DNA of 64,000 bases, from positions 96,001-160,000 of the forward strand of contig CAWCYI010000006.1 in assembly GCA_963799845.1 (NCBI GenBank), read 5' to 3'. Source of the DNA: an uncultured Nitrososphaerota archaeon. GTDB lineage: Archaea; Thermoproteota; Nitrososphaeria; Nitrososphaerales; CADDZS01. Below are positions 15,249 to 29,162 of the stretch, one piece after another (within the stretch, counting starts at the first letter, position 1; every line of letters starts with the position of its first letter). The translations under genes and the position numbers were made by a program. The notes under the pieces were generated by a model. The model was not told the origin of the DNA. It was given only the letters and a program-made list of their open reading frames with translations, and did not search any database.

Positions 15249-15863
15249 TCAGAGGGGTTTAATCGGTCTCCACTTTGCAATCTTGTAATAGATTACTTCG
15301 CCCCGCCTCTCGACGACAGCGACGACCGCTTCCTTTCCCATGGTCGACATCTCATCCACATGTTTTTTCAATTCCGACAGGCTCATCGTTTTTCCCTCGT
15401 TCAGACCAAACACGATGTATTTTGCAGCCTTGTTACCGTAGTCACCTCGATCGTAGACTCTAAAGTCGATGGGAAATCCAAAGCCCTCCCGAACCACATA
15501 GCCGCGGCTTCTAAGATCTCTAAATATCAAAAATCTTGTCCAGGCGTTCTCGTCTCGCTCCATTGCGAAGCTGACATAGTCGGTGAAATTAACCTTCCCA
15601 AGTTTGGTCGATTTGCTGGATTTCTTTGCCTTATCTTTCAGCGCAAGTTTGTTGCTGTACATCAAGTAAAGCACTTCGTAATCTTTAAGGTAAAACTGAT
15701 CGTTGTCCCTGATCCCAAATCCCTTGGATTCAAGTAATTGAGCATCCTCGCTGCGAGATAGGACTACATGGTCAACCCTTTTTGAATAGAAAGCTTCGAT
15801 AATTACCTGTTGTAAATCCTCATCTTTGCCTGTCCTTTGCGAACCTGAATTTCGATCGGACAT
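15249..15863 (-). CDS. endA: tRNA-splicing endonuclease subunit, probably the structural (beta) subunit
   Basis: IFRDLRSRGYVVREG..F..DFRVY.RG and AVV...GEVIYY; the catalytic His is absent (KAAKYIV). Start taken at ATG 15863; the ORF is open to 15947. Confidence 0.88.
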   Translation of the reverse strand: MSDRNSGSQRTGKDEDLQQVIIEAFYSKRVDHVVLSRSEDAQLLESKGFGIRDNDQFYLKDYEVLYLMYSNKLALKDKAKKSSKSTKLGKVNFTDYVSFAMERDENAWTRFLIFRDLRSRGYVVREGFGFPIDFRVYDRGDYGNKAAKYIVFGLNEGKTMSLSELKKHVDEMSTMGKEAVVAVVERRGEVIYYKIAKWRPIKPL

Positions 15864-16006
15864 ATCCGAAGATTCAGAATTCTTTTGGAATCTATATACT
15901 GGATTTGGATTTTCAGGTTCAGCGGGTTCCGAAATTGTCAAGGTCAATCAGCGAACATTAAAAAAGAATCTTTCGTGACATCTCAGTTTCAAATCTAGTT
16001 TATAAA

Positions 16007-20417: not shown

Positions 20418-20777
20418 ATGCGTAAATTTACAATGCGCCAACTTGACAATGGTCTTGAAGCAATTTTGATAGGCAGTCAAATATCGAACGCATTACAAAT
20501 AGAACCGCTTACTGTTCAGGAATTATCGGCATTAACTTATCATCCAGAATCCACCGTTTACAAACATCTTGCGAAACTGAATGAAGCGGGATATTTGGAA
20601 AAACATTTTGAAAATAGACAATGCTCTAATGGAGAAGGTCGAAAGTTTGCTGTTTATTCTTTGAAAGCGAAACCTATTGGATATATTCAGATAAACAAAT
20701 TCATGCTGAATAGACTAGAACGCAACTTGAGAAAAGAAGGTATCAATTGGAGTGTTCGAGAAACTAACTCAGGTTAA
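20418..20777 (+). CDS. winged-HTH protein, possible N-terminal part of the element transposase
   Basis: LTVQELS...PESTVYKHLAKLNEAGYLEK...GRKFAVYSL is a wHTH pattern. Confidence 0.8.
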   Translation: MRKFTMRQLDNGLEAILIGSQISNALQIEPLTVQELSALTYHPESTVYKHLAKLNEAGYLEKHFENRQCSNGEGRKFAVYSLKAKPIGYIQINKFMLNRLERNLRKEGINWSVRETNSG

Positions 20778-21453
20778 TCAAGCGTGGCTTTGTGATTTCT
20801 CTTATCTTACTAGACGATTCGCCTATTCTGGAGTCTCTAACAGGAAATACAATCCTAATCCTTCTACGGAAGAATGGAGAGGACAATGGCATAAAACAGG
20901 TTCAAAGAAGAACCCTACATTTTATCCGAAATGGTCGAGATACAACTTTCGAGAGACTGAGAAATACGGTTCTCATAGAAATATTGCAATTTACGATAAA
21001 CCTATTCTCCTTTTTGCTATTCAGGATGCTTACAGTCGTTTCATTATCCATGCTCACTTAAGACAGTCTTCCAAAGAATTCGTAAACATGTCTCATACTT
21101 TCCCTAGATGGTTTGAGTTAGACGATTGTTTCAAAGAAGCGTTTGAATTTCAAAAACCATTGAAGAGACTAGGTAAACCGTTTGAGTTTCTTATGGATGG
21201 AATGATTCATAGATGGTATAGCAAAAAACTTGAAGGTAATTATTTCATTTCAAAAGCAGTAAAAGAAAAGAATCACTTTCTCTTATCTCCCTTAGACGCT
21301 TTCTTCGGAAGGATTCAAAACGAAATGAGAACCGAATTAACTAATAGAAATCTAACCAATTATGTTGATTACTACAATTACGAAAGACCTCATTCAGCAT
21401 TGAACGGAAAGACTCCAGCAGACTATTTCTTTTCGGGTAATGTCTTTTGGTAA
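20752..21453 (+). CDS. divergent IS481/rve-like integrase core
   Basis: VNQAWLCDFS, LFAIQDAYSRFII, FLMDG, LDAFFGRIQNE and YYNYERPHSALNGKTPA motifs. Confidence 0.8.
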   Translation: MFEKLTQVNQAWLCDFSYLTRRFAYSGVSNRKYNPNPSTEEWRGQWHKTGSKKNPTFYPKWSRYNFRETEKYGSHRNIAIYDKPILLFAIQDAYSRFIIHAHLRQSSKEFVNMSHTFPRWFELDDCFKEAFEFQKPLKRLGKPFEFLMDGMIHRWYSKKLEGNYFISKAVKEKNHFLLSPLDAFFGRIQNEMRTELTNRNLTNYVDYYNYERPHSALNGKTPADYFFSGNVFW

Positions 21454-21456
21454 TCT

Positions 21457-21566
21457 ATTCTTTTAGGGCAGACGCGAAAGTGTGTGTGCATATTGGCACT
21501 CTCTCAGTCTCTCTTGGAGTCTCTTGGTCTCTCTGGGGCGCGCGGGCGCGTGAGTGGGGGGGGGGG
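21457..21566 (-). repeat. right terminal inverted repeat
   Basis: ATTCTTTTAGGGCA...GCGCGTGAGT-G11, the reverse complement of the left TIR. Confidence 0.97.
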
Positions 21567-21574
21567 TTTATAAA
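21567..21574 (+). promoter_or_regulatory. TATA box of mtnA, also the target-site duplication
   Basis: TTTATAAA ends 33 nt before the mtnA ATG; duplicated at 15999-16006. Confidence 0.7.
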
Positions 21575-21607: not shown

Positions 21608-22751
21608 ATGGAAGGAAAACTGAACTTCTATGAACAAAGGACGATAAAATGGGATGAAAAGAAAAATTCTGTTGTAATGATAGATCAGACCTTACTGCCG
21701 GTAACGCTATCGTTTGTTGAATGTACCGACGTTTCACAAATAATTGATGCGATAAAAACCATGAAGGTCAGGGGTGCTCCTGCCATCGGTGTAACAGGGG
21801 CGATGGGAGTTGCACTGTCTGTTTTTGCTTCCGAATCTACAACCAAGAAAGATCTTCTTCGGGAGATTGAGCCCGATGTGATCGCTCTAAAGGCTGCAAG
21901 GCCAACCGCGATAAATCTCGCATGGGGAGTGGATAGGTCTGTCGATTATCTGAAAACTAAATTGCCGGAGCAGTTTGACCGGAATCTTCCCAGGCAAGAA
22001 CTGGTTGAATTTGTCAAAGATTTAGCAGATTATGACGTTGAAACCAACAAGAAACTATCTGATCTTGGTGCCAAGCTTTTCGTTCCGGCGACAGCGTACT
22101 GACTCACTGTAATTGAATTTCAGACGTTTCGAATGAAACCTTTGGATTCAGCAGATTGCAGGTGCGCTGGCAACAGTTGGATACGGAACTGCTCTGGGTG
22201 TTCTGAGATCAGTCGCAAACCAAGGTAAGACACTGAAAGTGTACGCGGCCGAGGCAAGGCCGGTACTTCAGGGAGCGAGATTAACAGCGTTTGAACTCAT
22301 TACTGACGGGTTCGACGTTACACTCATGCCCGACACTGCAATTGGGATCTCAATGCAAAGAGGAATGATAGACAGAGTAATCGTGGGAGCCGATCGCATA
22401 ACCAAGACTGGGCACGTCTTCAACAAAGTCGGGACATATCAGATTGCAGCCTTGGCGAAGAGACACAATGTCCCATTCTATGTCGCAGCTCCACTATCGA
22501 CTTTCGACTTTGAGACCAATTTGAAGGATGTAAAGATCGAGGAGCGCTCCCCGGACGAAGTGAGGAAAATGAGAGGTCAGCAGACGGCACCCGAAAACGT
22601 GCCAGTATTCAATCCAGCGTTCGACGTAACTCCTCCCGAGCTGATCACGGCGATCATTTGCGAAGAAGGAGTCCTAACAAAGCCATTCGCACCAAAAATT
22701 AATAGGTTAAAGAAAAAAGCGCTAAGACAGAAATTAGGGCCCGTAGCCTAG
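21608..22751 (+). CDS. mtnA: methylthioribose-1-phosphate isomerase, split by a candidate intron and one probable assembly indel
   Basis: DQT.LP, VRGAPAIG, ARPTAINL, GDSVLTHCN|AGALATVGYGTALG, E.RP.LQGARLT, GADRI, NKVGTY and NPAFDVTP motifs. A 1-nt frameshift lies at TTTT 22077-22080. Confidence 0.9.
22113..22156 (+). other. candidate BHB-type pre-mRNA intron (44 nt)
   Basis: Central helix CTGT/GCAG, bulges AA^T and AT^T, internal hairpin; excision restores TGT AAT GCA (C-N-A) and the reading frame. Confidence 0.8.
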
Positions 22752-22891
22752 CATGGAGCTAAGCGTAGACTCGCATCCGCGTGCATGAGATCCTGTTTTT
22801 GATCTGCATACATCAGGGCATCGTGTTTGCCTTCAACTAGCGTGCAAGCCTTCGGAGCCGGGGGTCGTGGGTTCGAATCCCACCGGGCCCG
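22737..22891 (+). tRNA. tRNA-Arg(TCG) with three non-canonical introns
   Basis: Acceptor stem GGGCCCG/CGGGCCC; T-arm GTGGG-TTCGAAT-CCCAC; anticodon TCG at 22852-22854. Removing 22758-22812 and 22824-22847 gives a 76-nt cloverleaf. Confidence 0.9.
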
Positions 22892-23040
22892 CTCATTTTG
22901 ACCAAGGTATCAACGGAGTTCTTTTCCTATCGTCTGGTATTGCCGTTTTCAATAATTGGTTATGCCCCGGAGTTGGGGAAATAGCATTCAGGGTTAAATC
23001 CCAAAAGCGATCTCATATTATGATTAGAGTTTAACCCATT

Positions 23041-28094: not shown

Positions 28095-29009
28095 TTGACC
28101 AAAACTGACTCTATGGAAAGTTCGTCGAGCAAGCAGAGTGTCATTAGGGACTATTATTACGTTACAAAGCCGAACGTTATCACTCTGCTCGTTTTTACCG
28201 GAGCCGCTTCCTACGTTGCTTCTGCAGGATGGCATACCAGAATTCTTCAGCTCGTTCTAGTGTGCGCTGCCATCTGGCTGGGATCTGCTGCGGCGAACAC
28301 GGTCGGGAGTTACTTTGACCGGGACGTTGATGCCATTATGAAACGGACGAGAGACAGAGCAATACCCACTGGAAGGATTGCGCCCAAAAATGCCTTAAGA
28401 TACGGCTTGACATTGCTCGCGTTGAGCCTCGTCTTATCGTACTACCTGAACCCAGTTTGCGCTCTCCCCATGGTTGCTGGGTTCCTCGACTATACCGTTG
28501 TCTACAGTTACGGACTGAAGAGAAGAAGTTGGCTGAACATTATCCTCGGAGGGTTTTCCGGAGTGATGCCGGTTCTGATTGGGTTTTACGCAGCCTCAAG
28601 CCCAGTTATCCCGCTGGTTACCGCGGTATTCATGGGATTTCTTGTCTTCTTCTGGATTCCGGAGCACATCTGGTCTCTTGCGATTCGGTTCAGGCAGGAT
28701 TACACAGAAGCAAAGATTCCGATGCTGCCGGTCGTCATTTCAGAGAAACGATCGGTCCAGGTAATTGCTATCACGACGATAATAATGGTAATCTACAGCC
28801 TGGCGCCCCTTCTATTTCCCCAGTTGCATCTTCATCTAGTCTATTTGGGAGTAGCGGGCGGCTTTGGTGCGTTGATGCTAGCCATAAATGTCTGGCTTTT
28901 GAAAGACCCGTCTCCTTCGAAGGCGTGGACTGTCTTCAAGATATCCAGTCCGTATCTTTTCTTTGTTTTCATCGGAATCGTGATCGACGTTCTAGTCTAT
29001 TCACGCTAG
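28095..29009 (+). CDS. ctaB: protoheme IX farnesyltransferase (heme o synthase)
   Basis: TKP, DRDVDAIMKRTRDR.IP.G, LKRR..NI..GG and W.PEH.W.LA motifs. Confidence 0.95.
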   Translation: MTKTDSMESSSSKQSVIRDYYYVTKPNVITLLVFTGAASYVASAGWHTRILQLVLVCAAIWLGSAAANTVGSYFDRDVDAIMKRTRDRAIPTGRIAPKNALRYGLTLLALSLVLSYYLNPVCALPMVAGFLDYTVVYSYGLKRRSWLNIILGGFSGVMPVLIGFYAASSPVIPLVTAVFMGFLVFFWIPEHIWSLAIRFRQDYTEAKIPMLPVVISEKRSVQVIAITTIIMVIYSLAPLLFPQLHLHLVYLGVAGGFGALMLAINVWLLKDPSPSKAWTVFKISSPYLFFVFIGIVIDVLVYSR

Positions 29010-29162
29010 AATCCTTCAAGAGCCGAACGCGCCTCTTGTTTCTTGCGGCTCTTTCGTAAATCGACCATTCGAGTAGCATTATCCGAGAGACTCAGATTAT
29101 TCGAAAAGAGGAATTCTAACGTTCCACAAATTGTAAATCCCCACTCTTTTGAATGCCCGTCA

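Follow-up and report, generated by a model that had tools for sequence, protein, structure and literature searches.

A candidate tRNA-type intron in the coding sequence of mtnA in Nitrososphaerales and related archaea

Closest described systems

Introns of the bulge-helix-bulge (BHB) type have seldom been described in archaeal mRNAs. A passage in a 2020 study (PMC7714728) gives the crenarchaeal cbf5 intron as the only one reported besides a case in a 5′ untranslated region (UTR) of Haloferax, and passages in the same study, where Watanabe 2002 is cited, and in Yokobori 2009 (PMC2738675) place the cbf5 pre-mRNA intron in Desulfurococcales and Sulfolobales. Unconfirmed intron predictions in Sulfolobus genomes and a rudivirus are mentioned in part of PMC2738675, and among the works cited by a structural paper of 2025 (PMC12397907) the cbf5 papers are the only ones on archaeal mRNA introns. 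Here we describe a 44-nucleotide (nt) insert that interrupts mtnA, the gene for S-methyl-5-thioribose-1-phosphate isomerase, in a 64,000-nt stretch of DNA from an uncultured Nitrososphaerota archaeon of soil (contig CAWCYI010000006.1; the whole stretch is called the window below). As an earlier note on this DNA had proposed, the insert is very probably an archaeal EndA-type intron, that is, a tRNA-type intron with a relaxed BHB motif, which lies in coding sequence and is removed from the pre-mRNA; the comparative evidence supporting this consists of conserved sites, covariation, selection on the exons, a precise loss and the encoded enzymes. No published report of an mtnA intron was found in the full-text literature, which does not extend to supplementary lists of predicted BHB motifs.

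The cbf5 intron resembles the mtnA insert in being a short BHB-type intron in a coding gene, with an often relaxed motif, hosts that have a hetero-oligomeric endonuclease, and gains and losses among relatives. It differs in that cbf5 encodes an RNA-modification enzyme and mtnA a metabolic one, in its lineages, which judging by record titles are other than those of the mtnA carriers, and in that cbf5 splicing has been demonstrated experimentally whereas mtnA splicing is inferred from sequence. New relative to cbf5 would thus be the gene, the lineages and the unusually wide spread, while the predicted mechanism is the same. Haloferax volcanii HVO_1309 carries a BHB intron in its 5′ UTR according to PMC7714728; there, too, the tRNA splicing endonuclease acts on an mRNA and not on tRNA or rRNA. 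The Haloferax intron is outside the translated part, however, and its euryarchaeal enzyme needs a strict motif, whereas the mtnA element splits a codon within an active-site motif and is relaxed on its 3′ side. The non-canonical tRNA introns (HBh′, hBH and bulge-helix-loop, BHL) of the TACK archaea (Thaumarchaeota, Aigarchaeota, Crenarchaeota and Korarchaeota) share with it, as far as the relevant parts of PMC5829648 and PMC3241643 go, the motif class, the size range and the predicted enzymes, namely an (αβ)2 EndA with a specificity loop together with RtcB. Unlike these tRNA introns, the mtnA insert has an mRNA as its host RNA, with no tRNA body as a ruler and with exons constrained by protein coding. 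In eukaryotic HAC1/XBP1, a tiny structured mRNA intron is cut by IRE1 under stress regulation, and its removal changes the reading frame. The parallel with mtnA lies in an mRNA intron, a protein endonuclease acting with an RtcB-type ligase and a change of frame; it is an analogy and not intron homology, as IRE1 is not EndA/TSEN and the process is stress-regulated. The role of RtcB in XBP1 splicing is treated in part of PMC8718801.

The interrupted gene and the fold of its insert

The gene occupies 21608–22751 of the window on the forward strand, to which all coordinates below refer unless stated otherwise, and encodes an IF-2B-family protein of the MtnA type. Its two halves matched consecutive parts of the MtnA models: the N-terminal part aligned with positions 9–152 of the 358 in NF004326 (117.9 bits) and the C-terminal part with positions 167–354 (261.2 bits), each half scoring below the whole-protein cut-off of 271 and their rough sum above it. 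In the Pfam IF-2B model the corresponding coverage was 1–104 and 117–279 of 280 positions. The e2b2 model TIGR00511 gave 31.8 and 127.2 bits for the N- and C-terminal halves, and the ribose-1,5-bisphosphate isomerase model scored far lower than the MtnA model. Judged by these sequence matches the gene is mtnA, and no other IF-2B-family gene was found in this genome (completeness 86.7%).

Exon 1 (21608–22112) runs from the ATG at 21608 to CAC TGT AA; the putative intron follows at 22113–22156, with an equivalent placement at 22114–22157 because the junction bases are repeated; and exon 2 (22157–22751) begins with the T of the Asn codon, continues with GCA GGT and ends with TAG at 22749–22751. 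The reading frames on either side bore out the earlier note's observation that the motif THCNAGALAT is interrupted by 44 nt: positions 22087–22113 translate as GDSVLTHCN and positions 22158–22751 as AGALATVGYGTALG..., so that the active-site motif is split THCN|AGALAT by a length that is not a multiple of three. The insert opens with an in-frame TGA, the stop that, as also noted earlier, unspliced RNA would present at once.

The assembly itself lacks one T in exon 1, in the T run 22077–22080. This frameshift sits within the CTTTTC run at 22076–22081, 36 nt 5′ of the insert, and had been considered a possible sign of gene decay. Contigs from three sequencing runs speak against it: those of X1 (which may be the source of the window DNA), X2 (of the same study) and X4 (of another study) each carried an extra T behind 22076 at full depth; the frameshift is therefore a homopolymer error of the assembly. 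The X1 contig spans the whole of mtnA including the 44-nt insert, with the extra T as the sole difference, and records 6 and 7 of X2 jointly cover the insert without difference from the window, neither alone bridging it. Since the X1 and X2 contigs contain the insert, it is real DNA. With the T added and 22113–22156 removed, the stretch taken out by the rule of cutting after the second nucleotide of each bulge, mtnA becomes a single frame of 366 codons with no internal stop; with the T added and the insert left in place, the frame stops at codon 170. Relatives read GAKLFR(T/S)GDSVLTHCN in a single frame, and in 8 of the 11 closest metagenome relatives, those with contigs reaching far enough upstream, exon 1 forms one frame of 169–276 codons up to the break. 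Elsewhere in this assembly of 9 contigs, homopolymer errors of the same sort may yield further false frameshifts and pseudogenes.

RNAfold, applied to window positions 22085–22180, gave a fold of −34 kcal/mol, against −22.6 ± 3.2 kcal/mol in 200 shuffled sequences (z = −3.5), none of which folded as well, and it reproduced the architecture that had been described from the sequence alone. In the minimum free energy (MFE) structure the exonic strand CUGU (22107–22110) pairs with the intronic strand GCAG (22151–22154) to form a central helix H. The 5′ bulge AAU (22111–22113) is unpaired, with a predicted cut after 22112, and the 3′ segment AUU (22155–22157), with a predicted cut after 22156, faces UCA at 22104–22106 with no adjacent helix. 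An inner stem h′ (22114–22120 with 22144–22150, within 22114–22150) encloses a distal hairpin (22126–22130/22135–22139); by simple extension h′ has seven pairs, of which the MFE structure forms the first six, before continuing in a shifted register, and the centroid structure five. An exon-exon helix of 9 base pairs (bp) closes the whole element (22092–22100 with 22161–22169, within 22092–22169).

Compared with the strict BHB motif, the window element has the central helix of exactly 4 bp between the cut sites, and its 5′ AAD segment (in the notation used for the consensus below) forms a genuine bulge where H meets h′. The 3′ ADB segment consists of three unpaired nucleotides opposite unpaired nucleotides, which makes it an internal loop, and the adjacent outer helix h of the strict motif is missing, the outer helix abutting the 3′ bulge in 0/29 carriers. 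On these modelled folds the mtnA motif is not a strict BHB and belongs to the relaxed HBh′/BHL class, having a central helix, one good bulge and a flanking h′; the relaxed, BHL-like outer side had been recognised in the window alone.

Occurrence, conservation and history among relatives

Inserts of 19–46 nt at the same site were found in 57 distinct mtnA sequences, 46 of them genome-derived and 11 metagenome-derived, whose record titles name Nitrososphaerales/Thaumarchaeota, Ca. Caldarchaeum, Bathyarchaeia and Methylarchaceae. Independently of the RNA motif, the exon 2 protein sequence was searched against 41 of the order's genomes, sampled across families, and an orthologue was recovered in 34. 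For 16 of the 34 orthologues the open frame begins at the junction (190–220 amino acids, aa), and an insert was present at exactly this codon in 16/16. The other 18 are full length (at least 347 aa); the 16 that were read all lack an insert, and the two unread ones comprise one without a locus and one without a match to the motif search. A protein search in metagenome contigs added close relatives, of which 11/11 carry an insert (33–44 nt).

A DNA pattern of the motif matched 46 of the 401 genomes of the order, more than chance would give, as the reversed control pattern yielded 3 matches. Twenty-six of the pattern matches lie in mtnA, distributed over families f1 (8 genomes), f11 (9), f19 (4), f18 (2), f14 (2) and f3 (1); three more carriers have variant ends that fall outside the pattern, and mtnA is uninterrupted in the large families f9, f12, f15 and f8. 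A wider scan, in which the pattern was combined with exon 2 and applied to one genome per species across 185,579 species, returned 69 loci. Of these, 42 are in mtnA, under record titles naming Nitrososphaerales, Thaumarchaeota, Nitrososphaerota metagenome-assembled genomes, Ca. Caldarchaeum, Archaeon HR01, Ca. Methylarchaceae and Ca. Bathyarchaeia/Bathyarchaeota, and 27 were bacterial or without MtnA context, a number close to the chance expectation. In a small class around one Bathyarchaeota record the pattern matched in 7/17 genomes. One carrier (G001; loci L002 and L033) is flagged as unpublished; it accounts for one of the 57 sequences, and no conclusion depends on it.

Alignment with mtnA of related genomes, suggested earlier as a check, thus revealed presence and absence of the insert, and it also revealed conserved geometry and covariation of the inner stem. 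In 57/57 carriers H was present with a bulge segment after each of its strands, and the cut rule rebuilt CAC-TGY-AAY-GCN (His-Cys-Asn-Ala); in silico excision returned this sequence in 41/41 distinct cores of the 46 genome-derived carriers and in the 11 metagenome loci, besides the 366-codon frame of the window. Insert lengths of the genome-derived carriers fall into all three classes modulo three (16/20/10). In all 41 cores H is CUGY/GCAG and fully paired, the 5′ bulge is AAD (AAA in 30/41) and the 3′ segment is ADB. The stem h′ is paired at positions 1–6 in 100, 100, 98, 98, 82 and 65% of the cores, and its positions 2–4 show 3, 3 and 6 canonical pair types. Its paired fraction of 0.908 compares with 0.735 ± 0.017 in 1000 partner shuffles, none of which reached the observed value, and it drops when the strands are slid by 1–2 nt. 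The distal hairpin of the closest relatives shows compensatory substitutions as well as length changes. The shortest introns occur in Bathyarchaeia (loci L089, L113, L114, L119 and L123), where they comprise only 19 nt with an inner stem of 3–5 bp, near the minimum that leaves a stem and a loop.

Both exons are, as judged by sequence comparison, under purifying selection. Exon frames were open over at least 160 and at least 185 codons in 45/46 carriers, the exception being the assembly error of the window, and the median ratio of nonsynonymous to synonymous substitution rates (dN/dS) was 0.16 for exon 1 (38 pairs, maximum 0.33) and 0.10 for exon 2 (30 unsaturated pairs, maximum 0.157). On an unrooted tree of 62 MtnA sequences the intron state requires at least five changes, at least two of them forced by well-supported branches; shuffled intron labels required 14.4 changes on average, and 0/500 shuffles were as low as the observed value. 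One genome of the window's own genus (G006) is nested within an intron-bearing family with supports of 99 and 100, and its mtnA lacks exactly the predicted intron. Replacement of the gene by a spliced copy would be expected to leave such a precise loss. The intron may be ancestral to these classes or may have moved with the gene; the tree, unrooted and with Bathyarchaeia and Caldarchaeales represented by intron-bearing genes, fits both.

Splicing machinery and alternative explanations

The genome encodes two genes with the PF01974 endonuclease domain of EndA. The product of one, 186 aa long, is most similar to catalytic chains of crenarchaeal enzymes (3p1z_B, 2cv8_A, 3ajv_B and 2zyz_B), and its K-x-R aligns with K44/R46 of the Aeropyrum pernix enzyme. 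The other gene (15249–15947, reverse strand) encodes a paralogue of 232 aa with a PF01974 score of 80 bits, in which AK stands opposite the HS of the enzyme in the 1a79 alignment. It thereby has no His aligned with the H of this HS in the Methanocaldococcus jannaschii enzyme, the catalytic histidine, and the 232-aa protein is probably a structural β subunit. In part of PMC3241643, K44 of A. pernix is presented as the RNA-recognition residue of the EndA specificity loop, and in part of PMC5829648 only (αβ)2 and ε2 enzymes are described as cutting relaxed motifs. RtcB is also encoded (575 bits), so that the genome holds what a relaxed motif would call for, a two-subunit EndA with the specificity-loop lysine and an RNA ligase, with assembly of the subunits predicted from sequence. 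The β-subunit gene lies about 6 kb upstream of mtnA, and the gene for the catalytic subunit is found on this contig too (C6, in the region of 28787–29023), some 67 kb beyond the window. The cbf5 gene of this genome is uninterrupted.

A conserved and covarying relaxed BHB anatomy is thus found by sequence comparison across lineages, the genome of the window encodes the enzymes that would be required, and the following course can be proposed. The pre-mRNA would fold such that exonic CUGU pairs with intronic GCAG, leaving a 3-nt unpaired segment after each strand, with an intronic stem at the 5′ bulge and a distant exon-exon helix. An (αβ)2-type EndA would then cut after the second nucleotide of each bulge, that is, after 22112 and after 22156, and RtcB would ligate the exons, restoring the split Asn codon (AA + U), the frame and the motif THCN-AGALAT. 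The spliced product would carry the junction-spanning peptide ...LTHCNAGALATVGYGTALG..., the 44-nt intron would be released, probably as a circle, and ribosomes on unspliced RNA would halt at the UGA that opens the intron. The intron gives the impression of a passenger carried along for a long time, not of a sensor, since conservation does not reach beyond the cleavage motif.

Several points weigh against an EndA-type intron and have to be set beside this evidence. Splicing itself is inferred from DNA. Finding carriers by pattern selects for the motif, which accounts for part of their uniformity; the only carriers beyond this bias are the 16 of the protein search and those at the 11 metagenome loci. 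H is part of the MFE fold in 23/29 carriers, and in 6/29 another pairing is favoured; h′ beside the 5′ bulge has at least 4 bp in 28/29 and 38/42 carriers, and fewer by a simple count of adjacent pairs in 1/29 and 4/42. The A before H faces the G after the 3′ bulge in 29/29, placing the 3′ site in an internal loop. Two contrasts that favour the intron ignore relatedness and base composition: duplexes between the exons have an energy of −18.6 kcal/mol in 29 carriers and −10.9 kcal/mol in 16 intronless genes, and the synonymous third base of the His codon, which forms the first pair of H, is C in 16/16 protein-search carriers and in 7/16 intronless genes. The exon-exon helix starts several nucleotides from the motif and in differing registers among carriers; no conserved register was found, and pairing in the register of the window was no better in carriers than in intronless genes.

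A more far-reaching version of the same idea would make the element an ancient mRNA intron that predates the split of Bathyarchaeia, Caldarchaeales and Nitrososphaerales and is kept by selection to gate the salvage of methionine and polyamine by-product on tRNA-splicing activity, as an archaeal counterpart of XBP1/HAC1 and the tip of a wider, unannotated set of endonuclease-spliced TACK mRNAs. We consider this unlikely. A regulatory role, which the earlier note held possible, has no support in the conservation pattern, because only the cleavage elements are conserved and the loop is free to vary in both sequence and length. The genome-wide BHB scan that had been suggested earlier as a further check showed no detectable excess of additional split genes. 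Among 434,436 HBh′ candidates in this genome, those joining two open frames numbered 147, compared with 153–172 for cuts shifted by 1–2 nt (h′ of at least 6), with equal numbers at every stringency, and a BLAST test for candidates bridged by paralogues gave 84 loci against 89 in the shifted control. The scan could miss a handful of introns, as it missed mtnA itself owing to the assembly frameshift.

Among explanations without splicing, a split gene fares best, though it is very improbable: the insert would be a short spacer, and the halves of MtnA would be made as two polypeptides that assemble. The unspliced frame does stop one codon past the 5′ site in 31/46 carriers, and both halves are conserved. 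However, no ATG, GTG or TTG occurs between the last stop and the first exon-2 codon in 39/46 carriers, and the first ATG within exon 2 lies 28–65 codons in, whereas conservation begins at the first exon-2 codon. The invariant Asn codon, moreover, is divided between the two sides, a spacer needs neither a conserved 4-bp helix nor two 3-nt bulges nor a covarying stem, and G006 has lost exactly the predicted intron.

Ribosomes bypassing the insert, with take-off before the stop and landing 19–46 nt downstream, would be a slightly poorer account still. Translational bypass is known from gene 60 of phage T4, and a stop right after the break with a hairpin behind it would suit such an event. Take-off and landing codons do not match, however: the codon before the stop is AAA in most carriers, as reflected in the 5′ bulge of 30/41 cores, yet Asn is needed and is rebuilt only by AA + U or C, and the conserved geometry is that of an endonuclease motif around a gap that varies in length. 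Least credible of all is a gene in decay that received an insertion by chance, or an artefact of assembly, to which the frameshift upstream of the insert and an integrase-like fragment just upstream of mtnA might have pointed, given that contigs of three runs from two studies contradict the frameshift, that the insert recurs in the same contigs and, across many assemblies, in 57 distinct sequences, and that dN/dS is low (0.10–0.16) in what is the only IF-2B-family gene found in the genome.

If the insert is an EndA-type intron, mtnA would join cbf5, so far alone, as the second family of protein-coding genes in archaea known to depend on such splicing, and this in a metabolic enzyme of several classes, including soil and groundwater lineages, with introns down to 19 nt; mRNA splicing by the tRNA machinery would then be no one-gene oddity. 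Gene callers will give mtnA in these genomes as two fragments or as a pseudogene, so that methionine salvage is wrongly scored as absent. The carriers would also offer dozens of natural variants of a relaxed motif outside tRNA for studying site choice by (αβ)2 endonucleases, together with a clean case of precise loss.

Disrupted tRNA genes seem to be unusually frequent in this genome, which fits an endonuclease of broad specificity. ARAGORN needed an intron for 32 of 35 tRNA calls genome-wide, several of them with ‘introns’ above 1 kb that are probably false. With introns allowed, it called an intron-containing tRNA-Thr(CGU) gene with a 64-nt intron at 22737–22892, which shares 15 nt with the 3′ end of mtnA; to judge by its length, the tRNA gene may hold more than one intron, and default ARAGORN and Rfam searches miss it. 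A tRNA call within 400 nt downstream of mtnA was obtained in 27 of the relatives’ 62 loci, with or without intron, though the isotypes differ and are unreliable. A second match to the motif pattern in this genome (contig C6, 1479098–1479136, reverse strand; locus L138) is intergenic and probably due to chance, with a fold z of −0.05, no Rfam match and absence in 12 relatives; it has a complementary inner stem of 5 bp and lies upstream of a glycosyltransferase-like frame.

Upstream of mtnA, a TATA-box-like element, TTTATAAA, was read from the sequence at 21567–21574, 33 nt 5′ of the start codon, and is a putative promoter element. The region directly 5′ of the gene (20418–21453, forward strand, and 21470–21566) holds an ArsR/helix-turn-helix-like frame together with a second frame in which the C-terminal end is all there is of an integrase core (rve_2/rve_3), and may be what is left of a mobile element. 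Low-complexity GT/CT repeats and a G run lie between the integrase-like frame and the TATA-like box.

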